A stretch of DNA of 64,000 nucleotides, from contig OZ251518.1 of assembly GCA_965242965.1 (NCBI GenBank), positions 3,712,001 through 3,776,000 of the forward strand. Reading direction: 5' to 3'. The DNA comes from Candidatus Poribacteria bacterium (lineage in GTDB: Bacteria; Poribacteria; WGA-4E; WGA-3G). Below the pieces are notes generated by a model. The model saw only the letters and a list, made by a program, of their open reading frames with translations. It had not been told where the DNA came from and ran no database searches. Of this stretch, positions 9,713 through 63,600 are shown piece by piece. Position 1 is the first letter of the stretch, and the number at the start of each line of letters is the position of its first letter. The position numbers and the translations under genes were made by a program.

Positions 9713-10765
9713 ATGAAAACCATCGTTTTTGAAAAAATCGGACAGCTGCGCATCCAAGAGAAGCCTATCCCCACACTTGACGCGGGCGATGTGCTCATCC
9801 AAATGGAATTGTGCGGCATCTGTGCATCCGATCTTGCCGCTCTCCGAGGCGATGTCTCCGACTACGCACCGCCTGTTGTTATGGGACATGAACTCGCCGG
9901 ATTCATCGTGGAGAGCCGACACCCCGATGTCAAAGTCGGCGAGAAGGTTACCGTTAACCCGATGCTCTCTTGCGGCGTTTGCACGCATTGCAAAAATGAC
10001 CGGGGTAAATACTGCGACACCATTGAAGGCATCGGGCATGACATTGACGGCGGCTATGCGGAATATATCCGCATGCCAAAGCACGGTGTGGATACCGGTA
10101 AACTCATTCGCGTGCCGGAAACTATGCCTGCAGCGGAGTTGCTGTTCTTGGAACCCCTCGGCTGTTGTATCAATGCGATGCAGGAGACTTTGGGGGATAG
10201 TCCTCGCGTGCAGACAGGCGCGCCTACGGGTGCAGTCGCAATCCTCGGCGCGGGGCCGATAGGCTTGATGTTAACGCAACTCGCCAAACGCCGCGGTTTA
10301 GCAACTTACGTGCTGGAACCGCTCGCGCACCGCAGAACCGTCGCCGAAGAAGTCGGTGCAGATGCGACGTTCAGCATTGCCGCTGACGATGTCGCGCACC
10401 TCCGGGACATCACTGATGGCGGCGTGGACACCGTCATCTCCGCGACGACGAACAACGCCGCCGCCATCGCGCTCGCTTTTGACGTGGCGCGGCGAGGCGG
10501 ATGCATCAACTTCTTCGGGCTCGCCCCGGAAGGACAGGAACTCCGCATTAACTTAGAACAATTCCATTACGATGGACATAAACTGATGGCATCGTGGGCA
10601 TTTTCACGCGCAAGCCTTGAGGCATCGCGGCAGTTGTTAATCGAGAAGGCGTTAAATTTCGCGCCGCTGTTAACTGCGCGGTTCCCGATTGAGAAAGGCT
10701 TAGAGGCGTTTGATACTGCAGCGGCACATCAGGGGGTGAAGACTGCGGTGCATGGATGCCCTTGA
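9713..10765 (+). CDS. Zinc-dependent alcohol/sugar-alcohol dehydrogenase (MDR family)
   Basis: CGICASD, GHE, structural zinc CGVCTHC..C, GAGPIG. Confidence 0.92.
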   Translation: MKTIVFEKIGQLRIQEKPIPTLDAGDVLIQMELCGICASDLAALRGDVSDYAPPVVMGHELAGFIVESRHPDVKVGEKVTVNPMLSCGVCTHCKNDRGKYCDTIEGIGHDIDGGYAEYIRMPKHGVDTGKLIRVPETMPAAELLFLEPLGCCINAMQETLGDSPRVQTGAPTGAVAILGAGPIGLMLTQLAKRRGLATYVLEPLAHRRTVAEEVGADATFSIAADDVAHLRDITDGGVDTVISATTNNAAAIALAFDVARRGGCINFFGLAPEGQELRINLEQFHYDGHKLMASWAFSRASLEASRQLLIEKALNFAPLLTARFPIEKGLEAFDTAAAHQGVKTAVHGCP

Positions 10766-10950
10766 TTTCTTCGCATTATTCGTGTATAATTGAGGGTGTT
10801 TGTCGAGACCGGGAGGTCTCTCCTACCGGGGTGCATCGAGACCGAGGTCTCTCCTACGTTAATCCGATGTCTATAAGGAGGTAAGAACTCACAGCGTGAG
10901 TTCTGCCTGGTCTGGGAACGCTATTCAATACCACCAGGCAAAACAAAACC

Positions 10951-11796
10951 ATGATTCTTGGCGCGCATGTATCAACAGCCGGCGGTTTACACAACGCCAT
11001 CAAAAACGGCGATAAACTCCGCTGTGACGTGATACAAATTTTTCTGCAAAATCCAAACCAGTGGAAGCCGAAACCCATCGGGACAGATGGCATCGAAAAG
11101 TTCAAGGCGGCGTGGTGTGAATCGCCGATTCGCGAAGTAGTGGCGCATGATATCCACTTGAGCAATCTCGCCTCGCCGAAACCTGACGTATTGACCAAAT
11201 CGCGCGAGCAATTTCGGGCACAGCTGGAATTAGCGGCGCAGCTCGGCATCAGCGGCATCGTCACACACCTCGGCGCGCACCTCGGTGAAGGCGAATCTGT
11301 CGGTTTGAAGCGGCTGACAGAAAGTTTTGACGAACTCTTTGAGACTTCCGATGCGCCGGCAGTCACTGTGCTACTTGAAACCACCGCTGGGCAAGGGACA
11401 AACCTCGGCTACCGGTTTGAGCACCTGCGCGATGTGATTGCGATGTCCCGGTATCCGGCGCGATTCGGTGTCTGCTTTGACACGTGTCACGTCTTCGCCG
11501 CCGGTTACGATATGCGCACGGAGGCGGATTGCGAGGCAGTCTTTGCGGAGTTTGACGCGGTTATCGGCTTGGAACGGTTGCAGGCGTTTCATCTCAACGA
11601 CGCGAAATCGGAATATGAGAGCCGCGTGGACAGGCATGCGCACATCGGCGAAGGCAACATCGGTTCGGAGGCGTTCGCGTTCATCGTCAACGATGCCCGT
11701 TTTGCTGAGGTGCCGCTCATCATTGAAACGCCGGAGCTGAAAACGATGCATGAGGTGAATCTTGCAACCTTGCGTAGGTTAGCAGGCGTTTCATGA
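10951..11796 (+). CDS. nfo: Endonuclease IV (AP endonuclease)
   Basis: LGAHVSTAGG, LLETTAGQG, DTCHVFAAGYD, HLND..DRHAHIGEG, IIETP. Confidence 0.95.
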   Translation: MILGAHVSTAGGLHNAIKNGDKLRCDVIQIFLQNPNQWKPKPIGTDGIEKFKAAWCESPIREVVAHDIHLSNLASPKPDVLTKSREQFRAQLELAAQLGISGIVTHLGAHLGEGESVGLKRLTESFDELFETSDAPAVTVLLETTAGQGTNLGYRFEHLRDVIAMSRYPARFGVCFDTCHVFAAGYDMRTEADCEAVFAEFDAVIGLERLQAFHLNDAKSEYESRVDRHAHIGEGNIGSEAFAFIVNDARFAEVPLIIETPELKTMHEVNLATLRRLAGVS

Positions 11797-11818
11797 CCCT
11801 GCACGATGTCTTCAAATG

Positions 11819-11955
11819 CACCGTAGGTTGAGGGCCTGTCCCTCAACATGCCGCAAATTAATAAAATGCACCGTAGGTTGAGGGCCTGTCCCTCAACAGG
11901 CCGCGATGAGTTAACATCCACCGTAGGTTGAGGGCCTGTCCCTCAACAGGCCGCA
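11819..11955 (+). repeat. Three head-to-tail REP variants with an exact 50-nt period
   Basis: CCGTAGGTTGAGGGCCTGTCCCTCAACA at 11821, 11871 and 11921. Confidence 0.95.
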
Positions 11956-12023
11956 ATCCAATCTAAGTGATAACGGTAAAATAAAAAAGGTTAAGGCACA
12001 TAAGCATCGTCGGAGAACAAAAG

Positions 12024-12209
12024 ATGCGTATCGGTTTTTGGGAAGTTGCATTCCTACTCATCCTCTTTTTCGGGATAATCCTTATCTCGCGCATCGTTAC
12101 CCATTTTCAAACGAAGCGCGTCTGTCCAAACTGCGGTTTGGCGATTCGGACAGCCGCGCGGCGGTGCCCTGAATGTGACCGTAAATTTCCCCAGAAGGTA
12201 TCAACATGA
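12024..12209 (+). CDS. Small membrane protein with C-terminal zinc ribbon
   Basis: TM helix followed by CPNC..CPEC; GGAG SD; ATGA overlap with the next gene. Confidence 0.7.
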   Translation: MRIGFWEVAFLLILFFGIILISRIVTHFQTKRVCPNCGLAIRTAARRCPECDRKFPQKVST

Positions 12210-12412
12210 CAAAGTTAAAACTCAAAATCAACGGCATGTCCTGTCAGCACTGCGTCAAAACGGTGACAGATGCCTTGACAGAAGTGGAAGGCGTTCAGCG
12301 CGTCAAAGTCAATCTGCGAAAAGGCGAAGCCACCTTGCGCTTTGACGAGACGCGCGCCACGACTGCACACCTCACAGCGGCAATAACGGATGCTGGTTTT
12401 GAGGTAGTATAG
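12206..12412 (+). CDS. copZ: Heavy-metal-associated (CopZ-like) copper chaperone
   Basis: GMSCQHC motif, 68 aa, ends AGFEVV. Confidence 0.88.
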   Translation: MTKLKLKINGMSCQHCVKTVTDALTEVEGVQRVKVNLRKGEATLRFDETRATTAHLTAAITDAGFEVV

Positions 12413-12584
12413 AAACGCTCACCGTTCTGATTTCTCTCGCGCAGCCCACCTCTGTAGTTCGGGAGCGCCTGCTCCCGATCGGGGCCGGATCAGGTAATCT
12501 TGCCCTACAGGTGTGATGCGATCTGCCAGCAAAACGCATGGCGAGGGCCTGTCCCCCGCTTTCTTTCTCGCAGAGCTAGACATC

Positions 12585-12603
12585 AACAACCGCTAGGAAC
12601 AAC
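12585..12603 (+). promoter_or_regulatory. 19-nt leader motif shared with dnaE
   Basis: AACAACCGCTAGGAACAAC, 5 nt before the obgE ATG. Confidence 0.6.
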
Positions 12604-12608
12604 CAAAA

Positions 12609-13910: not shown

Positions 13911-13947
13911 GGTTTGCACCGTAAAAGTTTAGTCCAGGCGCGTCGTC

Positions 13948-13979
13948 ATTGACAGATTGACAGATTAACAGATTGACAG
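13948..13979 (+). repeat. (ATTGACAG)x4 short tandem repeat
   Basis: ATTGACAG ATTGACAG ATTAACAG ATTGACAG between obgE and proB. Confidence 0.85.
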
Positions 13980-14010
13980 CATCACTGATGGATTTGGGAA
14001 GGAGATAGGA

Positions 14011-15180
14011 TTGCACCAAGAACGTATACGAACGCTTGGCGATGTCCAAAAAATCGTGGTGAAGGTGGGCAGTAGCACGCTTTCAGATGGCGCGCACCTC
14101 AACGAAGCCGCCCTTGATGGGCTCGTCCACGACTTGGCGATTGTCAAACAAGATGGAGTGGAGGTAATCCTTGTCACATCGGGTGCGATTGCGGCGGGGT
14201 GGCCCCAACTCGGTTTTCGGCAACGTCCGCAAACGTTACCAGGGTTGCAAGCGGCTGCCGCTGTCGGACAGATTCGGCTGATGTCGGCATACGAGGAGCG
14301 GTTTCGTCATTATGGACAACGCGCCGCGCTGCTGCTGCTCACACAAGACGATTTCTCCGATAGGAAACGCTATATTCGCATGAGCGACACCCTCCGGACG
14401 CTGCTCCACCTCGGGGCAATTCCGATTATCAACGAGAACGATACCGTCGCCGTGGACGAAATCAAAGTCGGCGATAACGATACGTTGTCTGCCTACGTAA
14501 CGAACCTCGCCGAGGCGCAGCTCCTCGTCATTTTGTCAGACCAGGCGGGGTTTTATACCGCCGATCCGCGGGTGCATCCGGATACGAAACTGATTGATAC
14601 TGTCTCGGCGATATCGGCGGAGATGTGGACAGCCGCCGGGAGTGCAGGCACGAGTGTCGGCACAGGCGGCATGCTGACGAAACTGCGCGCCGCCGAGATT
14701 GTCACCGGTTCCGGTGAAATGATGGTGCTGGCTGATGGCAAGGAACCGCTCGCTGTGACACGCATCTTGAAAGGCGAACGCCTCGGCACGCTGTTTCTGC
14801 CGCAAGCCCGAATCACTAGCAAGAAACGGTGGATTGCCTATTCGCGCCCGCCGAAAGGTAGGCTATTCGTTGATAACGGCGCGCACGATGCACTCGTGCA
14901 AGGCGGAAAAAGTCTGCTGCCTGTCGGCATCCGCCGCGTTGAGGGGCATTTTGACTATGGCGACACCGTCTCCTGTTTCACCGATGATAATGCCTCTTCG
15001 CGCGTAGGAGAGCTCCCGCAATCTCGATGGGGACGCGAGTTCGCGCGCGGGCTGGTGAACTATAATTCAACACAAACGGCGCAACTCGCTGGCAAACAGA
15101 CGAAGGATATTGATAAAATCCTCGGCTACCGCGATTACGATGAGATTATCCACCGTGATAACCTTGTCTTATTGGATTGA
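14011..15180 (+). CDS. proB: Glutamate 5-kinase with PUA domain
   Basis: VVKVGSS, TSGAIAAG, PIINENDTV, GDND, GTGGMLTKL, IHRDNLV. Confidence 0.97.
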   Translation: MHQERIRTLGDVQKIVVKVGSSTLSDGAHLNEAALDGLVHDLAIVKQDGVEVILVTSGAIAAGWPQLGFRQRPQTLPGLQAAAAVGQIRLMSAYEERFRHYGQRAALLLLTQDDFSDRKRYIRMSDTLRTLLHLGAIPIINENDTVAVDEIKVGDNDTLSAYVTNLAEAQLLVILSDQAGFYTADPRVHPDTKLIDTVSAISAEMWTAAGSAGTSVGTGGMLTKLRAAEIVTGSGEMMVLADGKEPLAVTRILKGERLGTLFLPQARITSKKRWIAYSRPPKGRLFVDNGAHDALVQGGKSLLPVGIRRVEGHFDYGDTVSCFTDDNASSRVGELPQSRWGREFARGLVNYNSTQTAQLAGKQTKDIDKILGYRDYDEIIHRDNLVLLD

Positions 15181-15311
15181 TGCCAAATGCGGTGAGATGT
15201 GTTCGCGGGTAAAAATAAAAATCAGTTGCATGTTTCCTTGTTTTCGGGTAAAATATTGTAAAAGGAGCACTCCGAACTTCGTATTGGAGAGTTTCTGAAG
15301 GAGTTAGTTCA

Positions 15312-15755: not shown

Positions 15756-16002
15756 ACGCACCGGCGGCTTATTTACCGCGGCGCGTAATAACGAAGGTGC
15801 AGTGCGCCTCTTCAGGTCCGTTAGGCACTTCATTGAACAGCGAACATGCAGATGTCAGGACCCATTAAGGTGCTAAAAGCCCTCGGGGTTCTCGGACGTC
15901 TGCCGTGCTCTAGTTATTGGGCTGGCGGACCCAAAGAGGCGTTTTGAGGCGCATTTCAAAACATCCTCAGTTAAAAGCGAGGGTGAAAAGGGAGGTGAAA
16001 AA

Positions 16003-16311: not shown

Positions 16312-16372
16312 GAACACCGGCGCGGTAAACGCTCAGGCATGTTTACCTTAGCGGATACTAACGGAGGCAGCC

Positions 16373-16942: not shown

Positions 16943-16976
16943 GCGAGACCTCCCAGTCTCAATTGTAGGAGAATCA

Positions 16977-18317: not shown

Positions 18318-21281
18318 ATGCAAGCATTGACAACGTCAACGTCAACGTCAATGCGGCCTGCCAAATCAGAACAGCAGCCAAACAACGCATTGCGAAGACC
18401 GAAAAACCGCAGAAAAGGTATCAAGCTGCCCGCTTGGCGCGATGTCATTCGGCCCAATGAAGATGTCATCGCCGGCACCTTCCGAAAATCCGAATTCGCC
18501 GCGGACCTGCAGGAAGTCTACGAAGGCAGGGCGAAAACGGCTGAATACGGCGAAGCGGTGCTCTTCTTCAACCATACCTATATCACCCCGGGACTCCGCG
18601 GCTTAATCGTCAATACGTTGCGGCGGCTCAGCGGCAAAGGCGGCGAGCCTGTCATCCAGATGAAGACTGGGTTCGGCGGCGGTAAGACGCACAGCCTCAT
18701 TGCACTCTATCACCTCGTGACGAGTGCAGAACTTCTCACCACGCTGCCGGAAGATAAGTATGCCCGGCTGCGCGCCGAAATTCACGACATCATGCAGGAG
18801 GCGGACGTTGACGCGTCGCGATTACAAATCGCGTCTACCGGTATCGCAAACATTTCGGTGCTTGTCGGCACTTACCTCTCCACCACGGATGCCGATACGA
18901 CAGGACGCGGCGACCGGCTCCATACCCTTTGGGGCATGATGGCGAATCAACTCGGTGGACAGGACGCTTACGACATCATCGGTGAAGCGGCGCGGCAAGG
19001 CATCTCCCCCGGTGGAAAGCAGTTGGACAATCTTTTCAAAGCAGTCGGTCCCGCTGTCATTTTAGTCGATGAGCTCGTCGCGTATGTGCGCAACGTCCAG
19101 GGTGTCACGCAAGATAGCATCTATACCTTCCTTCAGACGCTCACGGAATCTGTGAGGCGCAGTGATAACATCGCGCTCGTTGTGACGCTGCCGGAAAGCC
19201 AGACGCAGGCAGGCGCAGCAGCCGGCAACGAAGCACTCCTGAAACTTGAGGAACTCCTTGAAAGTCATCAGGAAGAAGAGACAAGTGGCGAAGACGACGT
19301 TGTTGAGGAAATCTTTGAACGGATTGAGAACGTCTGGGCACCTCTGGAGATTAACGAGGCGTTTGAAGTCGTGCGCCGCCGGCTGTTCGGCAGCGAAATT
19401 GACGAGGAAGCTCGCGACTTGACGTGTGAGGCGTTCCACAAGCATTACCAGAACGCCCGCCGCGAATACCCGGACAACGTCACCGAGGCAAAATATCTCC
19501 AGCGGATGAAGGAATGCTACCCGATTCATCCCGAAGTCTTCGACAGGCTCCATTCGGATTGGGGTGCTGTGCCGGGGTTCCAGCGCACGCGCGGTGTCCT
19601 GCGCATCATGGCGAACTGTATTAGCCGACTCTATCAGCGGGAGAACCGTTCACCGTTGATAATGCCGGCAGACCTGGCACTGAGCGATTCGTCGCTTGCC
19701 GACGAGTTCACCGGGCTGCTGAGCCGACAAGGCGGACAGTGGCAGCCTGTCATCACCGAGGTGGATAACGATGGTGGGCTGACAGATCGGATTGACAGCG
19801 CGAGTCAATCATTCCTTGATATGGGTGGGGCTGCAAGGCGCATCGCACGCACTGTCTTCTTCGGCAGCGCGCCAAGTGGGGCAGTGAAAGGGATTAATAT
19901 CCGAAGCATCCATCTCGGCACCGTGTTGCCAGGGCAGAGCGTCTCCGTTTACAATGACGCTCTCCACCGCATGAGCAACGCGCTCTACTTCCTCTATCAT
20001 CTTGATGACAGGTATTATTTCCACGCCGAGGCGAACCTGAACAAAGTCGCCGGTGATCGTGCGAAGGAGTTTACCGATGACGATGTGCATGGACATATCA
20101 TCGGGATGCTCAATAACGCCGTTGGCAGAGAACCGGGGGTTCACGTCTGTCCGACATCACCGGGAGAGGTGCCGGATTCGGACGCGCTCCAGTTTGTGAT
20201 TTTGCCGCCGCATCAGGCTTTGCCGAGTCAGCAGAAAGATGCGGATACCGCAAGGCCGGCGGTGGAGCAGTTCCTCCGCTACCGAGGCACCGATGAGACA
20301 CAGCGCACCTATCGGAACACGCTCCTCTTCATCGGCGCGCGGCGCGGCAATATCCGAGAGTTGGAAAATATCGTCCGGCGGCACCTCGCGTGGGATTCTA
20401 TCCTCAACGGACACGAGCTCTACTCCGCTGTGTCGAACCTGAAAGATGCACGCCGAGATCAGACGATAGACAACGTTCAGGCAACTGACGATGCGGCGCG
20501 GGAACGGCTGTTCAAGGCGTTTCGACGCTTGCTAGTGCCGGCGCAAGAGAATCCGCGGCAGGATGAATACCACATCGCGGAGACAGAGATTAACGCCGAT
20601 GATGGCAGGATTGTCTCGCGCGCACGCCGACAATTTGAGCGCGACGAGACTATCATCGCCGATATGGCACCGGCGTTATTTGCGGACATGCTGAACCGAT
20701 ACATCTGGTCCAGCGAAAATTATCAGGAGCATATTGCGCTGGATACACTCTGGGCTCTGATGGCGCGCCACCTCTACATGCCGCGCCTGAAAAATAAGGA
20801 TGTCCTCATCCGATGCATCCGAAGCGGGGTGGAGGAAGGCTACTTCGGATATGCACGGGCGTATGAAGCGGGAAACTACGTGAACCCTCGGTTGCGCAAA
20901 CCGGTGTCCGGCGCAATCAGCATCGGCGCGGGAAGTGCCGCTGTCCTGATTAGTCCCGAAATGATGAAACTGTTGCTAGAGGAGCCGGTGCAGGAACCGG
21001 TGCCGAAAGCACCACGGGTAAGCGTGTCTACTGAGCGCGACCTGGCAAGCCAACAAGGGCCGACGCACCTTACCGTAACCAAAACATTGCAATTGGAGAT
21101 GGATTTCTCGGAAGATATCGATTTCCTACAGAACGAGATTGTTCGCACCTTGCACGACGATGGCGGCGAGGTGACGGTGCAGGTTATCGTTACGGCGAAG
21201 AAGACGGAGGGGTTTTCGGAGAACGCTGCGCGTTCTGTAAAAAATAACAGTGCGGAACTCGGTGCCGAATTCCGCACATGA
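18318..21281 (+). CDS. DUF499 family AAA+ ATPase (restriction-like/BREX-related defence)
   Basis: WRDVIRP, EFAADL, Walker A GFGGGKTHS, Walker B ILVDE, YPIHPE, FQRTRGVLR. Confidence 0.88.
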   Translation: MQALTTSTSTSMRPAKSEQQPNNALRRPKNRRKGIKLPAWRDVIRPNEDVIAGTFRKSEFAADLQEVYEGRAKTAEYGEAVLFFNHTYITPGLRGLIVNTLRRLSGKGGEPVIQMKTGFGGGKTHSLIALYHLVTSAELLTTLPEDKYARLRAEIHDIMQEADVDASRLQIASTGIANISVLVGTYLSTTDADTTGRGDRLHTLWGMMANQLGGQDAYDIIGEAARQGISPGGKQLDNLFKAVGPAVILVDELVAYVRNVQGVTQDSIYTFLQTLTESVRRSDNIALVVTLPESQTQAGAAAGNEALLKLEELLESHQEEETSGEDDVVEEIFERIENVWAPLEINEAFEVVRRRLFGSEIDEEARDLTCEAFHKHYQNARREYPDNVTEAKYLQRMKECYPIHPEVFDRLHSDWGAVPGFQRTRGVLRIMANCISRLYQRENRSPLIMPADLALSDSSLADEFTGLLSRQGGQWQPVITEVDNDGGLTDRIDSASQSFLDMGGAARRIARTVFFGSAPSGAVKGINIRSIHLGTVLPGQSVSVYNDALHRMSNALYFLYHLDDRYYFHAEANLNKVAGDRAKEFTDDDVHGHIIGMLNNAVGREPGVHVCPTSPGEVPDSDALQFVILPPHQALPSQQKDADTARPAVEQFLRYRGTDETQRTYRNTLLFIGARRGNIRELENIVRRHLAWDSILNGHELYSAVSNLKDARRDQTIDNVQATDDAARERLFKAFRRLLVPAQENPRQDEYHIAETEINADDGRIVSRARRQFERDETIIADMAPALFADMLNRYIWSSENYQEHIALDTLWALMARHLYMPRLKNKDVLIRCIRSGVEEGYFGYARAYEAGNYVNPRLRKPVSGAISIGAGSAAVLISPEMMKLLLEEPVQEPVPKAPRVSVSTERDLASQQGPTHLTVTKTLQLEMDFSEDIDFLQNEIVRTLHDDGGEVTVQVIVTAKKTEGFSENAARSVKNNSAELGAEFRT

Positions 21282-48151: not shown

Positions 48152-48387
48152 TGCATTCCTTTCAGTTAATAGAAAATGTTAAGGATAGTATACCTATTTT
48201 TCGAGATAAATGCAAACGGTTTTTTTCCCTTGACATTTTCTGCAGGGAGATGTTATCATTGCAAGCGCGCTTGTGAAGCGTTACGTCCGCGAATCAGGGA
48301 GCGAGCTTGTCAACTTCCTTTTCGCGAACGTCCCTTTGAAACATACAGAGAAGAACGTCATTGCACCGACAACCGTTAGTGAACGCC

Positions 48388-51300
48388 ATGCGAACAACAA
48401 AAACACTCAACATAAAACCGCACCACAAAGCGATAACCGTCTATTACGATGCGCTTGAGCGGTATCACCAGCACGGAGTCACCCACGAAACTGCCGGGCG
48501 CGCTGCTTTTCAAGCACTCCTTGAAGCCTGCGCGCGACAGAAGAATTGGACGCTCGTCTGTGAATACACGCTCCGACTTCCGGTGGGTTCGCGGGGGACA
48601 GACCCACGCGCTGCGGGGAAACACAGCACCCTCATCCGTCTTGACGGTGTCCTGCTTGACGCGTATAACCTCCCCTGCGGTACCTGGGAGGCGAAAGGCA
48701 TTCAAGGCAATCTGGCTACCGAAGCCCGGCGGAAGTTTGATGCCGGCTACCCCCAGGATAACATCCTCTTTCAAACCCCGGAACGTGCGATGTTGTATCA
48801 GCACGGAGCCCTCGTGCTTGACGAGGACATCACGAACCGGGAGAACCTCGTCGCTGTCCTCAAACGCTTTTTTGCCTACGAACGCGAACATGCCGCCGAG
48901 TGGGAAGCCGCTGTCACCGAATTTCGGGACATTGTCCCGGCCCTGAAGCGCGAGGCGGCGGAACTCATCCAAGCCCAACATCGCACGAGTGCCCGGTTCC
49001 AAACAGCCTTCGCCAATTTCCATCGGCTCTGCCAAGCAGCGATTAACCCGAACCTCTCCGAAGCAGCGGTGAAGGAGATGCTCATCCAGCACCTTTTAAC
49101 GGAACGAACGTTTCGCACCGTTTTTGGGAATCCGGACTTTACGCAGCGCAATATTATTGCACGCGAAATTGAGAAGGTTATCAGAGCACTCACCGAGGAT
49201 GCGTTCAGCCGGGACGAATTCCTCAAAAATCTGAACCCTTTCTACCAAGCGATTGAACGAGAAGCTGTCACCCTCGTCGATTTCTCGCAAAAACAGCACT
49301 TCCTGAATACCGTCTACGAACAGTTTTTTCAGGGCGATTCTGCTGAAATCGCCGATACGCACGGTATCGTCTATACCCCGCAGCCTATCGTCGATTTCAT
49401 GGTGAAGAGCGTGGACTATCTGCTCCAAACCAAATTCGAGCGTTCTCTGTCCGAGGCGGGCGTGCACATCATCGACCCGTTTGTGGGCACCGGCAATTTC
49501 ATCGTTCGGCTGATGCACGAGATAGACAGGTTCCAGTTAGAGGCAAAATACCGTTCGGAACTCTGGTGCAACGAGGTGTTGCTGCTGCCGTATTACATCG
49601 CGAGTATCAACATTGAGCACGAATTTTACGCCGCCATCGGAAAGTATCTCCCGTTTGAAGGCATCTCCCTTGTGGATACGTTTGATTTGGCGGAAGCCCG
49701 GCAGTTGTCGCTCTTAACGCAGGAGAATACCGCGCGCGTGGAGAGACAGAAAGCATCGCCGATGTTTGTCATCATCGGTAATCCGCCCTATAACATCGGG
49801 CAGAAAAACGAGAACGATAACAACAAAAACCGCAAGTATCCGACGATGGATAAGCGGGTGCGTGAAACCTACTCGCGCGACTCGGCTGCGGCCAGTAAAA
49901 AAGCCTTGGGGGATCTGTATGTCAAAGCGATTCGCTGGGCATCGGATAGAATCGGCGAAGCGGGGATTATCGCGTTCGTGACGAACCACAGTTTTCTTGA
50001 AGGCATCTCCTTTGATGGCATGCGGAAACATCTCGCGGCAGATTTTGACGCGCTCTATGTGGTAGACCTCGGGGGGAATGTCCGGCAAGGGCAACCGGGA
50101 GATGCGAATGTGTTTGGAATTCAGTGTGGTGTGTGCATTACCCTTTTTGTGAAAAGAAAACAGGCAACCCCCAAGTCGCCTCGCATCCTTTACAACGGGG
50201 AGACGCGACTCCAGAACAAATCGCAGACTTTTGAATTTTTGGAGAAATGCCAGCATGTAGGCAATGTGACGTGGCAGCAGATTCAACCTGATGCCAGACA
50301 TACATGGATTACCAGCGGCCTTCACTCGGAATTTGGCACGTTCGTTCCAATCGGCATCAAAAAAGCGAGGAAAGAAACCGATGCATCTGTCCCTGCGATT
50401 TTTCACAAATTCGGGCTCGGATTGCAAACGGCTCGGGACGCTTGGCTTTACAATTTTAACCACGACACCCTCATCCAAAACGTCAAGGCTACTATTGATA
50501 CCTACAACGCTCAGGTATTTGGTTGGGAGCGGCGAACAAATCCGGACATATCTGTTGATGATTTTGTCTTGGACGATGGAACAAAAATCAAGTGGAGCTC
50601 GGGGTTGAAAAGGAAACTGATGAGCGGACAAACCGCGGCATTTGCCGACGAGAAAATCCGGGAGGCAATCTACCGACCCTTCACGAAAACGAATCTGTTT
50701 TTTGACAGAACGCTCAATCATATCGTGTCCGTGTTTCCGAGCACTTTTCCGACACCAGCGACAGAGACAGAAAACCAGGTCATCTGGCTCAAAACCGGCA
50801 GGACCTGGCCGATGTTCGCGCTCATGGTAAACAAAATTCCCGACATACTTCCGCAAGGTGCCTCACAGTGCTTCCCCTTCTACGTCTACGATGAAGATGG
50901 CACTAACCGCCGCGAAAACATTACCGATTGGGCGTTGCAAAACTTCCGCGCGCATTACGGCGACGATGCCATCACCAAGTGGGACATCTTCAACTATACG
51001 TATGGCATCCTGCACCATCCTGGGTATCGCCAACGTTACGCGGCAGACCTGGGGCGCGATTTGCCGCATATCCCCTACGCCGAGGATTTCTGGGCATTTG
51101 CGAATGCCGGGGCGCAGTTAGCGGAGATTCACGTGAATTACGAGGCGCAGCCGCAATATCCGCTCACGTTCATCACGAAACCGGACGCACCACTCAATTT
51201 GCGCGTGGAAAAAATGCAATTGTCCAAAGACCGGACGCAACTGAAATACAACGAGTTTCTCACGTTGGCGGGAATTCCGGCGGCAGCGTTTGCGTATCGG

Positions 51301-51498
51301 TTAGGGAATCGTTCGGCGTTGGACTGGCTCATCGAGGGGTATCAGGTGAAGACAGATGATCGGAGTCAACTTGTCAACGATGCGAACAACGCGGCGAAGC
51401 CACGGTATATCGTGGAACTCATCGGTTCTGTCATCACGGTGAGTCTGAAGACGCAGGAGATTGTTGCAGGGTTACCTGAAATGTTCCGTGGTCCGTAG
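48388..51498 (+). CDS. N6-adenine DNA methyltransferase with type ISP-like C-terminal specificity domain (type IIG/ISP-like RM enzyme lacking a helicase)
   Basis: DG..WEAK nuclease-like N-terminus, GIVYTP, DPFVGTGNF, GNPPY, YRPF, YRLGNRSALDWLI; start ATG 48388. Confidence 0.88.
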   Translation: MRTTKTLNIKPHHKAITVYYDALERYHQHGVTHETAGRAAFQALLEACARQKNWTLVCEYTLRLPVGSRGTDPRAAGKHSTLIRLDGVLLDAYNLPCGTWEAKGIQGNLATEARRKFDAGYPQDNILFQTPERAMLYQHGALVLDEDITNRENLVAVLKRFFAYEREHAAEWEAAVTEFRDIVPALKREAAELIQAQHRTSARFQTAFANFHRLCQAAINPNLSEAAVKEMLIQHLLTERTFRTVFGNPDFTQRNIIAREIEKVIRALTEDAFSRDEFLKNLNPFYQAIEREAVTLVDFSQKQHFLNTVYEQFFQGDSAEIADTHGIVYTPQPIVDFMVKSVDYLLQTKFERSLSEAGVHIIDPFVGTGNFIVRLMHEIDRFQLEAKYRSELWCNEVLLLPYYIASINIEHEFYAAIGKYLPFEGISLVDTFDLAEARQLSLLTQENTARVERQKASPMFVIIGNPPYNIGQKNENDNNKNRKYPTMDKRVRETYSRDSAAASKKALGDLYVKAIRWASDRIGEAGIIAFVTNHSFLEGISFDGMRKHLAADFDALYVVDLGGNVRQGQPGDANVFGIQCGVCITLFVKRKQATPKSPRILYNGETRLQNKSQTFEFLEKCQHVGNVTWQQIQPDARHTWITSGLHSEFGTFVPIGIKKARKETDASVPAIFHKFGLGLQTARDAWLYNFNHDTLIQNVKATIDTYNAQVFGWERRTNPDISVDDFVLDDGTKIKWSSGLKRKLMSGQTAAFADEKIREAIYRPFTKTNLFFDRTLNHIVSVFPSTFPTPATETENQVIWLKTGRTWPMFALMVNKIPDILPQGASQCFPFYVYDEDGTNRRENITDWALQNFRAHYGDDAITKWDIFNYTYGILHHPGYRQRYAADLGRDLPHIPYAEDFWAFANAGAQLAEIHVNYEAQPQYPLTFITKPDAPLNLRVEKMQLSKDRTQLKYNEFLTLAGIPAAAFAYRLGNRSALDWLIEGYQVKTDDRSQLVNDANNAAKPRYIVELIGSVITVSLKTQEIVAGLPEMFRGP

Positions 51499-51948: not shown

Positions 51949-52262
51949 GAGGGTGTTTCATAAATCTGTGTAGAGTCCCCTTCACCGTAGGGCGAGGGCC
52001 TGTCCCTCGCCATGCCCGGACCCTATAAAAGACCGTAGTTCGGGAGCGCCCGCTCCCGAACGGGTCAAGATCAGGCGATCTTGACCTACAGAATGGGCCC
52101 AACGCTCGCGGGGGACAGGCCCCCGCGCTACGGGTACATCGAGACTAGAGGGCTCTCCTACAAGAACATCGCTGGCATCGAGACCAGGAGGTCTCTCCTA
52201 CCGGGGATACATCGAGCCCCGAGGTCTCTCCTACCGAACGCATCGATTTATGAAACACCCTC
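51949..52262. mobile_element. MITE-like cassette with REP cargo
   Basis: TIRs 51948-51962 and 52249-52263; flanks AAGTAATCT and AAATAATCT (8/9). Confidence 0.8.
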
Positions 52263-52298
52263 AAATAATCTCCGAAAAATCGCGCGTTGTAACCGCGC

Positions 52299-53120
52299 CT
52301 ACCGGCCGTGGATTGCCTGCAGATTGAGCCGCGCGGCGACATCGTCAGAGACAGCGTTCGTCCAATCGACATCCGCAACGCTTTGCAGGCTCATCAGCGC
52401 GACATCTACCAACGGGTTCGATAGGGAATAGTTCAACAGGAAACTATCCACGTCAACGGCTGCCATCTCGGTGGGAAAGCAGTGGCGCGTGAGATTTTGG
52501 AAGGCGTTGCTCGTTGTGGAACGCATCAGCACGATGCCCATTTCCTGCGCTTCGGCATCGGGGATAACGCCGCGCTTTCCGAACGCATCGCAGGTGCTTT
52601 GATACATCAGGTTGTAGTGGATTTGCATCATATCCAATTCGCCGGTGGCGATGAGTTGCTCCACACCACCCGAAGGCCCATCTGCAGAGAACCCAATAAA
52701 GCGAACCTTCCCTTCTTTTTTCAACTTCAGATACGCCGCTAATCCGCCGCCGTTCAAAATATGTTCGGTGTGTTCGGCATAGAACCATCCGCCGTGGAAT
52801 TGCAGGACATCGATGTAGTCGGTGCCGAGGCGTTGGAGGCTCCCTTCCACGTCGGCGGCGATGCCATTCGGCTCAAACGCCTCTGTCTTGGTAGCGACGA
52901 TGCATGCATCACGCCTGCCCGCAATCGCCTTGCCGATGACAATTTCGCTGTAACCGCCACCGTAGGTAGGCGCGGTGTCGAGATAGTTGATGCCGATGTC
53001 AAAGGCATAGTGGAGCATCTTAACGAGTTGCGTCTCATCGTGCTCGGGACGGACTCTGCCGCCGCCGTATCCAATTTCTGAGACGTTGATGCCTGTCTTG
53101 CCGAGGGTGCGGTATTGCAT
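52299..53120 (-). CDS. Aldo/keto reductase
   Basis: MQYRTLGKTG, DTAPTYG, SLQRLGTDYID, GKVRFIGFS; start ATG 53120 behind GGAGG. Confidence 0.92.
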   Translation of the reverse strand: MQYRTLGKTGINVSEIGYGGGRVRPEHDETQLVKMLHYAFDIGINYLDTAPTYGGGYSEIVIGKAIAGRRDACIVATKTEAFEPNGIAADVEGSLQRLGTDYIDVLQFHGGWFYAEHTEHILNGGGLAAYLKLKKEGKVRFIGFSADGPSGGVEQLIATGELDMMQIHYNLMYQSTCDAFGKRGVIPDAEAQEMGIVLMRSTTSNAFQNLTRHCFPTEMAAVDVDSFLLNYSLSNPLVDVALMSLQSVADVDWTNAVSDDVAARLNLQAIHGR

Positions 53121-56712: not shown

Positions 56713-56715
56713 TTT

Positions 56716-56989: not shown

Positions 56990-57572
56990 TGTAGTGCGAG
57001 GGCCTGTCCCTCGCCATGCTTCGGGTTACCCAACGATCGCGGGGGCCTGTCCCCCGCGCTACGGTATCGGGCGTGTTTCTTGGCAGCAGCCCGGCCCCCT
57101 TCATCGTAGTGCGAGGGCCTGTCCCTCGCCATGCTTCGGGTTACCCAACGATCGCGGGGGCCTGTCCCCCGCGCTACGGTATCGGGCGTGTTTCTTGGCA
57201 GCAGCCCGGCCCCTTCCCCGTAGTGCGAGGGCCTGTCCCTCGCCATGCTGCGGTCTACCGGAAGTTCGCGGGGGAAACCCGCTCGGATGCGCGTGTGGCA
57301 TCCGAGGGCCCCCGCGCTACGGTACTGGGCGGGTTTCTTCACGATCGCGGGGGACAGGCCCCCGCGCTACGGTATCGGGCGGGTTTCTTGGCAGCAGCAC
57401 GGCCCCCTTCCTCGTAGGGCGAGGGCCTGTCCCTCGCCATGCTGCGATCTACCGGAAGTTCGCAGGGGACAGGCTCTTTTAGGTTCGTAGGACTTTAATA
57501 ATGTTTATAGTGTAGCATCGAGACTAGGAGGTCTTTCCTACCGGGAAGGCATTGATATATGAAACCCCTCGT
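56990..57572. repeat. Tandem REP doublets (BIME/REPIN-like, ~115-nt unit) ending in a degenerate TIR
   Basis: The unit starting GTAGTGCGAGGGCCTGTCCCTCGCCATGC recurs at 56991, 57106 and 57220. Confidence 0.9.
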
Positions 57573-57580
57573 TTTTTAAC

Positions 57581-57609
57581 TTGACACATCGCGTCAGACT
57601 TGCTATAAT
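57581..57609 (+). promoter_or_regulatory. Consensus sigma-70 promoter with extended -10
   Basis: TTGACA-N17-TATAAT, with TG at 57601-57602. Confidence 0.85.
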
Positions 57610-57683
57610 AATTACATCATTTACTGACGCTTTGCACCACTCCGAAAAAACACAAAAAAAACACTTCGTGCCACGACAACATA

Positions 57684-58916
57684 ATGGAAAAACCGAGACT
57701 GCTGCTGTTATTTTTAACCCTATTTTTTGTGATGCTTGGGTTTGGCATCATCATTCCCAACCTCGCCTATTACGCCGAAGATATCGGGGCAACGCCCACC
57801 GAAATCGCCGTATTGATGTCCATCTATTCCGGGATGCAACTGCTGTTTGCGCCGCTGTGGGGCAGATTATCCGACAAGCACGGCCGCAAGCCTGCGATTC
57901 TGCTCGGTTTGCTCGGTAACGCTGTCGCGTTAGTTGGCTTCGGACTGGCGAAAAGTTACGTCTGGCTCTTCATTGCGCGGAGTGCAGCCGGTGTCGCGTC
58001 AGCGGCGGTGCTACCGACTGTAATGGCTTATGTCGCCGATGTGACGACAGAAGAAGAGCGCGGCAGCGGCATGGGCTTAATGGGCGCGGCGATGGGGCTC
58101 GGCTTCATCCTAGGTCCCGCGCTTGGCGGTATCATGGGCCGGCACGATGTGCCTTTCTTTGTCGCCGGTGGTTTATCGCTGCTGACGTTTCTCTTTGCGA
58201 TGTTCCTGTTACCGGAGTCCCTCCCTCTCAATAAGCGCGGTTTCAAACCGCACTTACCGGGGCCGGAGGCGCATGACGAATCCGGTCAAGGGAGCGCGAG
58301 GGACAGACTCTCGCACTACGGTTACAAGGAATTCTGGACAGGCCTGAAATCGCCGCTCAATTCGCTGTTTCTCGTCGCGTTTTTTACTACCTTCAGTTTC
58401 GCGGGCTTAGAAGCGACGTTCCCACTTTTCATTGAAAAAGGGTGGAACTACGGACAAAGAGAGATGGGGTGGATGTTCGCGATCATCGGCGTGATTGTCG
58501 TCCCGTTGCAAGGCGGTTTACTCGGACGGTTGATTAACAGGTTCGGCGAACGACGGCTTATCCTTATCGGGATGGTGCTGAATGCGGTAGGGATGGCACT
58601 TTTGTCCGGTCCTTCTTGGTTCGCGCCAACGTCGTTCCTGATGCTCACAAGTTATCTGACGCTCGCCGGCATCGGCAATCAACTCATCCGTCCGACGAAT
58701 ACGTCGTGGATTTCTAAACAGACGCATATTGGGCAAGGCACGGCTATCGGCATCATGGACGCGTTTTTAAGCCTGGGGCGTATCCTTGGCCCGCTTCTCG
58801 GCGGTTGGCTTTATGAGCAGGATGCGTATCCTTATCCTGTGTTGGCTGGCATTTTGCTGGTTGCGACGGTTTGTCTGTATGTCCCGTTGCGGCGCATTCG
58901 TCTCTTTCAGGATTAA
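57684..58916 (+). CDS. MFS transporter (TetA/DHA1-like)
   Basis: WGRLSDKHGRKP motif A, GFILGPALGG motif C, multiple TM helices. Confidence 0.92.
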   Translation: MEKPRLLLLFLTLFFVMLGFGIIIPNLAYYAEDIGATPTEIAVLMSIYSGMQLLFAPLWGRLSDKHGRKPAILLGLLGNAVALVGFGLAKSYVWLFIARSAAGVASAAVLPTVMAYVADVTTEEERGSGMGLMGAAMGLGFILGPALGGIMGRHDVPFFVAGGLSLLTFLFAMFLLPESLPLNKRGFKPHLPGPEAHDESGQGSARDRLSHYGYKEFWTGLKSPLNSLFLVAFFTTFSFAGLEATFPLFIEKGWNYGQREMGWMFAIIGVIVVPLQGGLLGRLINRFGERRLILIGMVLNAVGMALLSGPSWFAPTSFLMLTSYLTLAGIGNQLIRPTNTSWISKQTHIGQGTAIGIMDAFLSLGRILGPLLGGWLYEQDAYPYPVLAGILLVATVCLYVPLRRIRLFQD

Positions 58917-58920
58917 TACC

Positions 58921-59230
58921 AAATTAGGAGCAGGATTATCACGATTAGGAGCAGGATTATCACGATTAGGAGCAGGATTTCCACGATTAGGAGCAGGATT
59001 TCCACGATTTCCATGATTTCACAGGATTAGGTTTCTGACGCGCCGGCACCGTTTTGGCATGCCACGAGGTATTCGACCTATCATCTTGCGAAATCTTGTG
59101 AATCTTGTAAATCCTGCTCCGGATTTGCACGATTAGGAGCAGGATTATCACGATTTCCAGGATTTACCAGGATTAGGTCTCTGGTGCGCCGGACACCGTT
59201 TTGGCACACCACGGCGTATTCGATCCATCA
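58921..59230 (+). repeat. 21-nt tandem repeats (ACGATTAGGAGCAGGATTAT/TC) plus a duplicated ~100-nt block
   Basis: Four tandem units at 58921-59003, another near 59129, inverted AATCCTGCTCC at 59110. Confidence 0.9.
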
Positions 59231-59280
59231 GACTTGGGGCATCTTTAGGTCTGTAGGACCTTAATGTCTATAGAATGTGC

Positions 59281-59538
59281 TTAATAGATGCTACTCCGAT
59301 GCCCGATTTGGTAAACGGTCAGGTTTCGGGTGCGCCGGTCAAAGGAATAGAGCACGCGATAATGATGGGCGACCTTTAAACGGAACTTCCCAGAATGTTC
59401 ACCCTTCAGTGCATGGTGCCGACGTTCGTCGCACTCTCTACACAAATCTTCCAGTTTCTGGAGAGCCCGTCTTCGGATCGGAGCACTTAAACGCTGCAAA
59501 CCGGTTCTGGCCCGCGGTTCAAGAGTTAGCGTGTACAT
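59281..59538 (-). CDS. RelE/ParE family toxin
   Basis: 85 aa and basic; LKG..FRLKV..YRVLY..V.QIGHRSSIY; overlaps the upstream gene by 20 nt. Confidence 0.88.
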   Translation of the reverse strand: MYTLTLEPRARTGLQRLSAPIRRRALQKLEDLCRECDERRHHALKGEHSGKFRLKVAHHYRVLYSFDRRTRNLTVYQIGHRSSIY

Positions 59539-60286
59539 CTAACTCTACCCCAAATTCTTTCGCGAGTTCTGCAAGTGAGATTAGTTCCGCTGTGCCTGCT
59601 TCAACCGCCGCGATATCGCTATCAATCTCCTCCAAGAGATCCTGCCTCACCTCTAGTCCATCGTCCGAATCGTAATCATAAACCTCTAGGAATTGCTCCA
59701 TCTCCAAGTAGGAGACGAAGAATTCAAGGAACGCATATCGTAAACAGTTTTGCGCAGAAGTTTCTGGAAACCGAGCTGCCTCCTGCAGTGAAAACTGACC
59801 CGGGTTTACGGTGTCCGATGTTGTTGTGAGCAGTTTGGTAATCTGCATCCCCAGGTCAAAAATCGGCCAGTTGGCGAGTATCTCCAGCAGCGCGCGGAAA
59901 TCAGCGTCTGCTAATTCTGTCACCTTTATGTTCGGTGGCGGTTCGCCGAGAACGCCGAGTCCCATCCGTTTCGCGACGCGTCCCTCCTGCGATGTCTGCC
60001 GCTGCGCCTCAACGACTTTCACTCGGTGTTTTAGAAACGCCGCATCGTTATCACACGTCCCAAGAAGCGCGAGAAGAGAAACTTCCGCTTCTTCCAGATC
60101 GAAAGCAATCCCGAGGTATTCTTCAAAAAACTCACGGAATTCTTCTTCCAGTGCCACCCTGTCGGCATCCTCGGCGAGCAATACAACCAGCCGGTCGCGG
60201 GCAGTAAAAAGCGAGTCCTTCACAACCGAACCTACCCACTCGCGGAATTGCTTGGGGGTTAGCGTTGTAACATCTTTGACTATCAT
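59519..60286 (-). CDS. Putative antitoxin, unusually long (255 aa) and acidic
   Basis: ATG 60286 behind AAAAGGAG; C-terminus D.GLEVR..ISLAELAKEFG resembles small RelE partners. Confidence 0.65.
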   Translation of the reverse strand: MIVKDVTTLTPKQFREWVGSVVKDSLFTARDRLVVLLAEDADRVALEEEFREFFEEYLGIAFDLEEAEVSLLALLGTCDNDAAFLKHRVKVVEAQRQTSQEGRVAKRMGLGVLGEPPPNIKVTELADADFRALLEILANWPIFDLGMQITKLLTTTSDTVNPGQFSLQEAARFPETSAQNCLRYAFLEFFVSYLEMEQFLEVYDYDSDDGLEVRQDLLEEIDSDIAAVEAGTAELISLAELAKEFGVELDVHANS

Positions 60287-60329
60287 TAGAAACTCCTTTT
60301 CTCTTTCAAAACACAGTCTCGATTTCTTC

Positions 60330-60655
60330 CCGTAGGAGAGACCTCCTGGTCTCGATTCCCCGCGGTAAGAGAGACCTCCTGGTCTTGATGCAATAGGGCG
60401 GCGCGCCTTCCCGGGCCGCGGCGGCAGAAACCCCCCCTTCATCGTAGGACGGTGGGAAAACCTGTCCCTCGCCAGCGTAGGTCAGGATCGCCTGATCCTG
60501 ACCTGTTTGTGATCAGGCGATCACAAACTACAGAATGGGAAACGCACATCGGAACGATGGCGATCGCGGGGGACAGGCCCCCGCGCTACGGGATGCATCG
60601 AGACCAGGAGGTCTCTCCTACGGGGATGTATCGGGACAAGGATGTCCCTCCTACC
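60330..60655. repeat. REP-like palindrome array
   Basis: Same GTAG families. Confidence 0.88.
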
Positions 60656-60663
60656 GAAGAAAG

Positions 60664-63600
60664 TTAATCGTCAAATTCAGTCAACGGTGGCAACCGATGC
60701 GTCACTCGGCGCGTATTGTATTCAAGCCGATACCGCCGATGCGCCGCATCATCTGGATAATGCTCCGTATCGGGATAAGGGTAGGCGGACATCCCGTGAA
60801 ACGGCAACGGTTCAACTGTCTGCGAGGTAAGTGTGTTGATATCGCCGTCTTTGTCCCATCCGTCGCTATAGAGGATGAAGTCGCGCACCCATCCCGGCTT
60901 TAATTTCTGCAGGCGCGCCGCGTCAAATTCCACCGTGATTTCGTCACCGGCGTTGAGGATGACATACATATCGTCTACCGCCTGCAGCAACGGGTTCACA
61001 TCGCCGTAGCGAGTGTAGTGTCCCGCGAGATCTCGCCATTGCGCCGCTGGCGTCACCTTTTCGTAATCAAACAGATGCGGCGCGTGCGGTGTCGGACGAT
61101 ACATCTCCGAAAAACCACGATAGTGCAAGTCCGCGCTATCCGGTGTCAACTCCGTTATCTCCATCGGCACATCTTGCTCGCCGACGGTGAAAAATGCCGC
61201 GTCCCAATAAATCTGCAAATCGGTGTCAATCCGAACCTGTCTGTCGTCGGACAGGAACTTGCCAGTCATATCTACGGTAATCGTCTTGTTTTTGCCCGCG
61301 GGCAGGCCAATCATCTCAATAACCGTTTCCCATTCGCCTGCCTCGTTTTTCACTGAAACCGAAGGGAACTTCGGGCTGATTGCCGGATTTTGATAGAGCG
61401 CGACGTTGATGCTGGTATCTGTCGGGAAGATCCAGCCGCTGAGATAGAGCGTCACGGGCGTATCGCTGTCCGTAGCAGCCTGGGCATCGCTAGGGACAGG
61501 CCCTCTCCCTACGGGATGAGAAGTAGCACTGCCTTCTACGGCGAGATTGAGGATAATCGCGTGTGGTTCAACAACGCCTTGATGAGGCCCCGGGGCATGT
61601 TCTACGGCGTAACGGTAATCCACTGCGCGCAACGCATCCGAAACATCCTCGCCACGATGATTGAAAGCAGTGCTCGGATGCAGTTTTTCCGCAACGCCAT
61701 ACACCTTGAATTCGGCGAACGGCGGCGGTGTGTATTGCTCATTCGTGAAGATATCCGTGCCTTCCGGATGATCTACCGTGATGAGTTTCACCACGTCAAA
61801 ATAGGCAGTTTCCCACAATTCCTCCGTAATCTGAACGGAATATCTGCCCGATTTCGGTTGGATGTGAGATGCCGGAATTTTGACAAAATCTTTCGTTTCA
61901 TCGGGCGCGACGAACCCCATGGACGTAACGAGCCCCAACGGCGCACGCCACAACAAATCCGTGACAAACCGATACCGCTCACCGTCGTAGACATATAAAA
62001 ACGGACAAGAGCCCTTCAGAACCTGTTTTTCCAAGATGCGCTGTCTTGCCTTGGGCGCGATGACGTTTTGCGGCACCCCGTTTGTCCAGACTACGCGCAC
62101 CACATCAGCCGCCTCAAACGCGCCTAACCCGAAATGTGAAACCTGTTGCGAGACATACTGCACCTGATACAGGTCACCGACTTTCACCTCTAATTTTGAA
62201 CCGAGCCCATCACGATTGATTTTGTTATTGCCCGCCGTAATGCCCTCCAGTTTCACTTGAATCCAGTTGTTTTCGTTACCGCCGCGGTTTTGCAGCACGC
62301 GCAAGCTTCCCTCGTTGTCAATCACAACGAGATCCAGCGCACCATCATTATCTACATCGCCGACTGCACCCGTGATGCCAATGATATCCGGTGGTAGCAC
62401 ATCTTGCACCTCCGTGAACCTTCCCGTTCCATCGTTCCGAAGGAGTGCCATGCCGAGTTCGCCGATCATCCAGACATCAACAAACCCATCATTATCGTAG
62501 TCGAGATTGCGAACGGTAGTGACACGCGCGCCTGCTTGGAGTGGATATGGAAATCCACTGCTACGTTCTTGAACAAAATTGGCATCGCTTCCGTTAAGAT
62601 AGAGGTGATAACCCTTCTCCGCGGTCAAGAAGATATCGATGTCGCCATCGTTATCATAATCGCCAACCGTTGCGGCAGCGTAGTGTGCATCCTGAGCGAT
62701 GCCGATATCATCAGTTCGCGCGCGGAGTCTACCTTGGCGGAGGTTATCCCACAACGTGCTACCCGTTTCCTCGTGCGTCACGAAGATGTCAATGTCGCCA
62801 TCGTCATCGAAATCCGCAGCCAGTGCCGCCGTCGCGACTGAAGCATCGCGAGTGCCTGTCCCTTCCCCCACCGTGTCCTGCAGGAATGTCTGTTCCGAGA
62901 CATCCGTGAAAGTGCCATCGCCGTTATTGCGATACATTTGGAGCTCGCCGCCAGAAACCAAGTCCAAATCTCCATCGTGTTCTGCATCAATGGGCAATAA
63001 GAGAGGAACATGCCCTCGTCCTACCGTATCTGCATTGCTGAGGATTTCTGTCTGTTCAGCGAACGACGCTTCTTGCAAACGCGCCAGCACGATTCCCTCG
63101 CTAGTTGACAAGAGAAGTTCCTGCGTGCCATCCTTATCAATATCAGCGAACGCCGCCGAGTGCTCCCCCAACGCCGGAAATTGATAGGCGCGGATAAACT
63201 TTTCTCCCTCGTTCCGAAATAGCGTGCCTATCGGCGCGACATACATATCCAACTTGCCATCGCCATCATAGTCAGCAAGAGAGACAGAAGCCACCCCCGT
63301 GTCCGTAGACACTCGGAGATTGCCCAATCCGAGTTCCGATGTCACATCCACAAATTGCACCCGAATCGGTTCCGTATGTTTCGCAGTAAGCCGCGCTTTA
63401 AACCCTGGACTGAACCTTTCGATCGGATGCCCCAAAATGTCTGTCACCAACTCGCCGATGCCCTGCTGATACCGTGGTGTCGCGCGATGCAAATTTTCAA
63501 AGATGCGGAAGTTTCGCGATGCCGTTTTCACGTCACCCTGCTCAATCAGAGCCATTCCCTCTGTCAGATATTTCAGTTTCTCCGCGTCCGTATCCCATAA

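Follow-up and report, generated by a model that had tools for sequence, protein, structure and literature searches.

In-frame REP palindromes inside intact protein-coding genes of a Candidatus Poribacteria genome

The DNA analysed here, which we call the window, is a stretch of 64,000 nucleotides from a Candidatus Poribacteria bacterium (contig OZ251518.1, positions 3,712,001 to 3,776,000; in our numbering G000:C1:3712001-3776000, where G000 denotes the genome of the window). G000 comprises 5.70 Mb in two contigs with 54% G+C, and the public sequences nearest to its ProB are all labelled Candidatus Poribacteria, many of them sponge-derived metagenome-assembled genomes (MAGs). The window is densely packed with small palindromic repeats. 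A first-pass annotation, made from the letters alone, had taken these for repetitive extragenic palindromes (REPs) and had proposed that decayed copies are also read in frame inside six intact genes, at nine sites, one of them listed as merely possible. We confirm this observation for seven to eight of the nine sites.

The identities proposed for the six host genes agree with their Pfam domains. Five lie on the forward strand: a Zn-dependent alcohol dehydrogenase (ADH; 9713..10765; ADH_N, ADH_zinc_N), the glutamate 5-kinase ProB (14011..15180; AA_kinase, PUA), a DUF499 ATPase (18318..21281; PF04465), an ISP-like DNA methyltransferase (48361..51498; Type_ISP_C, ISP_coupler, N6_Mtase, Eco57I) and a transporter of the major facilitator superfamily (MFS; 57684..58916; MFS_1). 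The sixth, on the reverse strand, encodes a TPR/FG-GAP/ASPIC protein (60664..63969; FG-GAP_3, TPR, UnbV_ASPIC); its open frame passes the end of the window, with the call reaching window position 64374, and its UnbV_ASPIC match (22.0 bits) is slightly below the cut-off of 23.4. All six genes have the expected domains, no internal stops and conservation on both flanks of the sites. They encode 350-1,101 residues, and the REP lies wholly inside the open reading frame (ORF) and is read in frame. The ratio of nonsynonymous to synonymous substitution rates (dN/dS) against G002, a sister species, is 0.11-0.16 at dS values of 0.34-0.80 (ADH 0.117, ProB 0.124, DUF499 0.158, ISP 0.156, MFS 0.154, ASPIC 0.113), so that the hosts are under purifying selection.

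We found the REP families of G000 by anchoring on the GTAG tag and counting 12-mers, and then built hidden Markov models (HMMs) from them. Forty-five tag-anchored seed classes with at least 25 copies each cover 9,662 sites. In every seed consensus the GTAG tag stands at one end and is followed immediately by a GC-rich hairpin or palindrome; family consensus lengths are 25-36 nt, with GC-rich stems of 6-8 bp. At a threshold of at least 14 bits, 56 HMMs delineate 13,285 non-overlapping REP units in G000, which cover 431 kb (7.6% of the genome) and of which 180 fall inside the window. REPs are here high-copy and predominantly intergenic: their density is 11.5 per kb between ORF-based gene calls, against 0.052 per kb for the strictly filtered in-gene units described below. 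With the same HMMs we obtained 0.66-2.53 matches per kb in loci of three genomes of the same genus (G000, G001 and G002) and 0-0.09 in those of 23 genomes that belong to other genera. Besides the tagged hairpins, G000 contains further short families with hundreds of copies each, among them AT-richer units and units resembling the ends of miniature transposons.

The nine in-gene sites were scored with 246 repeat-family HMMs built from G000; the initial set of 56 had recovered five of them at E ≤ 10. As null we took the best score anywhere in each of 100 codon-shuffled copies of the same host gene. Four sites were reached by none of the shuffles, namely ISP 48589 (21.9 bits), MFS 58231 (27.2 bits), MFS 58296 (23.3 bits) and ASPIC 61489 (28.9 bits), and two further ones by a single shuffle, ASPIC 62848 (14.4 bits) and ASPIC 63001 (13.2 bits). 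ProB 15004 was marginal (10.2 bits; reached by 7 of 100), and neither ADH 10205 (4.0 bits) nor DUF499 18817 (4.5 bits, not above its shuffles) was significant. By score, the claim of decayed REPs in intact genes stands at six sites and less firmly at ProB.

For the orthologue comparison, each of the six proteins was used to search 30 relatives from 13 genera, and the best-matching loci were aligned; of the relatives, G001 and G002 belong to the same genus as G000. On either side of all nine sites, 12-19 relatives have conserved homologous protein sequence. The relatives from other genera have near-zero REP matches and insertion-free alignments and are therefore without both the repeats and the segments; had REP-free relatives possessed the segments, the first-pass annotation would by its own criterion have been refuted. 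The proposal that this lineage gains REP-derived segments in frame while its host genes stay intact is supported. The in-gene units are single hairpins. Contigs of three additional studies, made from other samples, run through the ISP, MFS and ASPIC 61489 sites and contain the insertion there; other contigs break exactly at the repeat. The insertions are therefore no artefact of the G000 assembly. Among the contig matches listed, no empty-site allele was seen at the six covered sites, with the proviso that contigs drop rare variants.

In the ISP-like methyltransferase, an in-frame unit of the commonest REP family (48583..48633, +) accounts for 13 extra residues (79-91). G002 has 25 at this place, in two units; in 14 other sequences there are none. 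The MFS transporter carries two units in its central cytoplasmic loop, both common to G002. One, of the commonest family (58296..58322, +), provides about 11 extra residues that are absent from 18 of 18 other sequences, and contigs from other samples span it. The other, of a fourth family (58231..58257, +), brings a small net gain because the length of the loop varies among genera.

The ASPIC protein has three sites, all on the reverse strand. At the strongest, 21 extra residues (61465..61539) surround a REP core at 61485-61516; G002 has 12 extra residues here, G001 three and 17 other sequences none. In the codon alignment G002 retains just the right half of the unit, which indicates a later partial deletion, and a contig from another study crosses the site without a gap. 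The second site (62843..62863) is a decayed unit with a flipped loop in a genus-specific segment, whose copy in G002 is better preserved and beside which G001 has a second unit. The third (63003..63027) is a decayed unit in a variable region without clear net length gain; REP-type peptides occur nearby in G001 and G002, but in different aligned columns. A further ASPIC insertion is present in G001 and G002 and missing from G000. The proposal that REPs add loops to these proteins needs correction at 58231 and 63001, where the units replace sequence of variable loops instead of clearly adding length.

In ProB, a decayed unit of the second-commonest family forms a 14-residue insertion (residues 327-340; 14989..15030, +) in the PUA domain. 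The insertion has four residues in G002 and is missing altogether from the orthologues in other genera (18 of 18), and it appears as a clean 14-residue gap against a solved kinase structure (PDB 4q1t). The Pfam match to PUA spends 89 residues on 74 model positions, with the insertion inside. No target-site duplication was seen at ProB when the codon alignment was checked by eye. The ADH insertion has ten residues (164-173; 10202..10231, +) and lies directly before the Rossmann GxGxxG strand. G000 and G002 have it in common, and it is absent from 14 of 14 orthologues from other genera. In the G002 gene the best REP match coincides exactly with the insertion (10.7 bits, a score that 5 of 100 shuffles attained). 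Judging from these alignments, the ADH insertion is genus-specific and only the G002 copy is still recognisable as REP-like, so that the suspicion of a REP in this gene is supported by the relative and not by the score in G000 itself. AlphaFold2 models of ADH and ProB, computed with 16 and 20 close orthologues, respectively, were discarded for their low mean confidence (pLDDT 45.8 and 62.6); the PUA domain and the region of the ADH insertion were below 50, and the placement of both insertions in coil between elements of secondary structure was not relied on.

The DUF499 site (18804..18845, +) contains a small palindrome whose tail resembles that of a REP. Here G000 has twelve residues in place of six in G002 and lacks one more just downstream, for a net gain of five; this state occurs only in G000, neither G002 nor 12 other sequences having it. 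By its alignment it is a real indel, not demonstrably derived from a REP, and we regard its REP origin as unproven.

To place the window sites in the context of the genome, we called 3,935 ORF genes with a simple codon-usage model (81.6% of G000) and scanned them alongside a codon-shuffled and a synonymous-codon-shuffled version, at a threshold of at least 14 bits. The real genes gave 1,126 matches, 489 of them interior, the codon-shuffled genes 10 (5 interior) and the synonymous-shuffled genes 113 (46 interior). In-gene REP matches therefore far exceed the codon-shuffled control, a comparison by which the first-pass annotation could have failed. Since many of the real matches are REPs swallowed by over-long ORF starts, we required coding signal on both flanks, which left 241 in-frame units in 119 genes. 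This filter is conservative, as it recovered only three of the nine window sites. Even so, the high density that had been proposed from eight or nine sites in the window holds for the genome, with 241 units against 5-10 matches in the codon-shuffled control. The swallowing of REPs can be seen in the window itself, where three reverse-strand ORFs (3734-4558, 7098-8189 and 59519-60442) have 5' ends that cross intergenic REPs 9-118 bases from the putative start. Their longest-ORF starts are probably too far upstream, and gene callers are thus likely to over-extend such genes.

We checked the domain context in 20 genes drawn randomly from the 117 filtered genes outside the window. In ten, Pfam domains flank the REP on both sides or span it; these include an ABC ATPase, a GT9 glycosyltransferase, a UvrD-RNaseT helicase, restriction-modification methylases and TPR, BNR and LRR proteins. 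Seven have a domain on one side and three have none, and no gene was contradicted. In all four drawn genes that we compared with five relatives each, the REP-derived sequence is confined to the genus; an NTP-transferase and the UvrD helicase have gained 18 and 22 residues, respectively, over G002.

The peptides themselves can be traced to the DNA element. We translated the family consensus in six frames and compared the result with the in-gene peptides. The commonest family is read in genes as TVARGPVPRD, RSAGACPPRS, RSRGTGPRATV and TIAGDRPPRYG (or MARDRPSPYG), the second family as PVGETSRSR, GRRDLPVS, HRDREVSPT, ASRPGGLSY and IETGRSLLP. The peptides singled out in the first-pass annotation likewise turned out to be stop-free frames of the REP consensus. 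Genes make use of five of the six reading frames, in both orientations; the frame that turns the tag into a stop is absent among the 200 of the 241 units that were grouped by peptide, the other 41 being ungrouped. That genes read one and the same DNA element in five frames and in either orientation shows an origin at the DNA level.

At shared sites, the number of units differs among G000, G001 and G002, and some loops have received REPs repeatedly. The ISP-like methyltransferases form a very large paralogue family (29 matches in G000, 25 in G004 and 20 in G002); the protein, of about 1,040 residues, has a coupler, an N6 methylase and a Type ISP specificity domain, and a helicase or nuclease part was not detected. 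Of its 21 full-length paralogues in G000, four, including the gene in the window, have REPs of various families and in various frames in the loop at residue 76. In seven, the linker that precedes the specificity domain holds a REP array 10 to about 120 residues long; 13 are REP-free at both sites. In the NTP-transferase, the same loop contains two units of one family in G000 (L197, G000:C1:3406777-3407766) and one unit of another family in G002 (L221), and has been struck independently in the sister species.

Two of these genes also give an indication of how units may be gained. In the NTP-transferase, a direct duplication of about 26 bases, among them 12 of unique gene sequence, borders the new material. 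In UvrD, a unit of the commonest family, together with a second left arm of the resident unit, lies inside a REP that is intact in G002. These patterns suggest local duplication or recombination between REPs rather than simple cut-and-paste. IS200/IS605-type transposition is not expected to leave a flanking duplication of about 26 bases.

Outside the genus, we looked at three loops in G004 (genus g3). The central loop of its MFS transporter contains an in-frame palindromic repeat of its own (L023:2080-2151), whose 30-base core has at least 57 other matches in the G004 genome at 93-100% identity. The insertion in the GT9 loop has four weak matches in G004, and that in the ABC loop no match in G004 beyond itself. 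At the level of sequence, parallel insertion in another genus is thus demonstrated for one of the three loops, that of MFS.

A search of the whole G000 genome with PF01797 hit two places, one encoding a REP-associated tyrosine transposase (RAYT) and the other a decayed IS605-type tnpA; a second RAYT was not found in this search. The RAYT (L190, G000:C1:3147583-3147918) lies about 565 kb before the window, scores 117 bits against NCBIfam NF047646 (cut-off 80) and has clusters of one REP family on both sides. The ORF upstream of it is artificially lengthened through REP units. The IS605-type remnant (L189, G000:C1:3123891-3127127) consists of a TnpB-like gene (OrfB_IS605, Cas12f1-like TNB) adjoining a Y1 transposase frame broken by stops.

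Taken together, we consider it very probable that the in-gene segments are G000's own REP copies which have become fixed inside protein-coding genes. GTAG-tagged REPs, putatively tied to a RAYT, would arise mostly between genes. Copies arriving in a gene would be lost unless they add a multiple of three bases, present one of the five stop-free frames and fall into a tolerant surface loop or inter-domain linker. The survivors would be translated as short peptides rich in Arg, Gly, Pro and Asp and, if neutral, would subsequently be worn down by point mutations and partial deletions. A resident REP might also draw in additional units, through local duplication or recombination with further copies, and arrays could thereby accumulate at a few permissive sites.

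Several results weigh against this reading. Neither DUF499 18817 nor the ADH insertion as it stands in G000 scores as a REP, ProB 15004 is marginal with 7 of 100 shuffles, and at 58231 and 63001 the units replace sequence in variable loops and do not clearly lengthen the protein. Genome-wide, two-sided domain support was obtained for only 10 of the 20 genes sampled, and the count depends on crude ORF-based gene calls. The duplication at the NTP-transferase insertion departs from what IS200/IS605-type transposition would leave. Finally, the REP family flanking the lone RAYT differs from the families at the nine window sites. The weak sites in this list, together with the location of 58231 and 63001 in loops whose length varies across all genera, are also what could be said for a resemblance by chance or composition, in which ordinary variable loops of a GC-rich genome merely look like the repeats. 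This is very improbable as a general account, since it is already refuted at the six sites that beat 99-100 of 100 shuffles, and since the genome-wide excess of interior matches (489 against 5), the agreement of the five-frame peptide pattern with the DNA consensus and the coincidence of the best REP match with the insertion in the G002 ADH all contradict it. We assign an equally small probability to an artefact of annotation, by which the REPs would be extragenic and the ORFs pseudogenes, fused neighbours or N-terminal over-extensions. REPs do lengthen the 5' ends of ORFs, as in the three window ORFs with REPs at most 118 bases from the putative start, and half of the sampled genome-wide candidates lack two-sided domain support. 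For the window genes, however, this explanation is refuted by the homologous sequence on both sides of all nine sites and does not fit the low dN/dS of the six hosts or the location of the ProB insertion inside the PUA match.

A different question is whether the REP peptides are more than tolerated, being kept as useful parts such as flexible linkers or variable surface loops, for instance in a sponge symbiont's restriction-modification enzymes and its eukaryote-like repeat proteins. The recurrence at the same loops is in favour of this, as seen at the two sites of the ISP paralogues (4 and 7 of 21), in the different REP families in the NTP-transferase loop of sister genomes and in the MFS loop, where another genus has its own high-copy REP; so are the arrays of up to about 120 residues and the presence of TPR, WD40, LRR and BNR proteins among the hosts. 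Yet recurrence is equally expected where few loops tolerate insertions, and the window copies are decayed and partly deleted, as neutral sequence would be. We therefore think adaptive recruitment unlikely, and prefer fixation of tolerated REP copies. A broader reading would make REP insertion a major, ongoing and recurrent source of coding sequence across Poribacteria, with the same loops colonised independently by different families in sister species and genera, units multiplying in place to arrays of up to about 120 residues, and restriction-modification and eukaryote-like repeat proteins being remodelled, possibly adaptively. This we offer only tentatively, as an idea that we would sooner doubt than accept.

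In-gene REP insertion is itself already known, from Rickettsia palindromic elements (RPEs) and, according to Di Nocera et al. 2013 (BMC Genomics 14:522, PMC3733652), from the GTAG REPs of Opitutus terrae. That study defined GTAG- and CGTC-tagged REP superfamilies and placed REPs wholly within ORFs of known proteins in several species, with the intragenic maximum of the GTAG class in O. terrae; intragenic REPs are described there as often being dimers or clusters that encode 20-30 residues, often in repair and helicase genes. The likeness to our elements is close, as the Opitutus-type REPs are palindromes of 20-40 bp with a terminal GTAG, mostly intergenic, a minority of which lie inside ORFs as single units, dimers or clusters encoding 8-30 or more residues, in repair, helicase and modular-protein hosts, to which the UvrD-like helicase corresponds here (PMC3733652). 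They differ in belonging to another phylum and in their REP sequences. In scale, the 70 occurrences of 'terrae' in Additional file 3 of that paper compare with no fewer than 241 units in 119 genes of G000, with the reservation that the counting methods differ.

The first-pass annotation had drawn its analogy to the Rickettsia elements. This holds for the way they work, as RPEs, as described in work citing them (PMC3733652, PMC3184786), are selfish palindromes in frame in intact genes of probably functional proteins; they are not the only close precedent, however, since intragenic GTAG REPs had already been catalogued in several bacteria, most of them in O. terrae (PMC3733652). There, the intragenic repeats of R. 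conorii, of the CGTC-tagged class, are equated with RPE-4 and RPE-6 of Ogata et al. 2000 (Science 290:347), and in-frame fusion of small repeats with genes is reviewed by Delihas 2011 (PMC3184786), which gives about 105-146 bp for RPEs, in contrast to our units of 25-36 nt. The host of RPEs is moreover an obligate intracellular alphaproteobacterium. With their length and their restriction to one genus of Poribacteria, the units described here are RPE-like in working only and are not RPEs.

A full-text literature search of a limited collection found no paper that ties Poribacteria to REPs. With REPIN/RAYT systems, G000 shares a big REP population, inverted REP pairs and a single-copy RAYT with REPs of one family on both sides, but it has many coexisting families for the one RAYT detected. 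Pseudomonas REPINs have been described as essentially extragenic. What is distinctive here are the exceptional density of in-gene REPs, their turnover within the genus and the repeated use of the same loops.

With at least 119 genes in one genome and differences in presence and absence between sister genomes, these REPs form a large natural data set on selfish DNA turning into protein, which allows one to ask which loops tolerate insertions, how fast inserted peptides decay and whether arrays grow in place. On the practical side, the low-complexity REP peptides could pass for functional motifs in the proteins of sponge symbionts, and the repeats distort and inflate gene calls and break short-read assemblies at sites internal to genes. 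In public sequencing runs, contig depth is at least 100-fold higher over intergenic REP clusters of the window (51968-52491, 57208-57731 and 60352-60875). Short-read contigs terminate at REPs, including the in-gene unit at 61492-61514, and short-read MAGs of this group are therefore expected to be fragmented at such sites.

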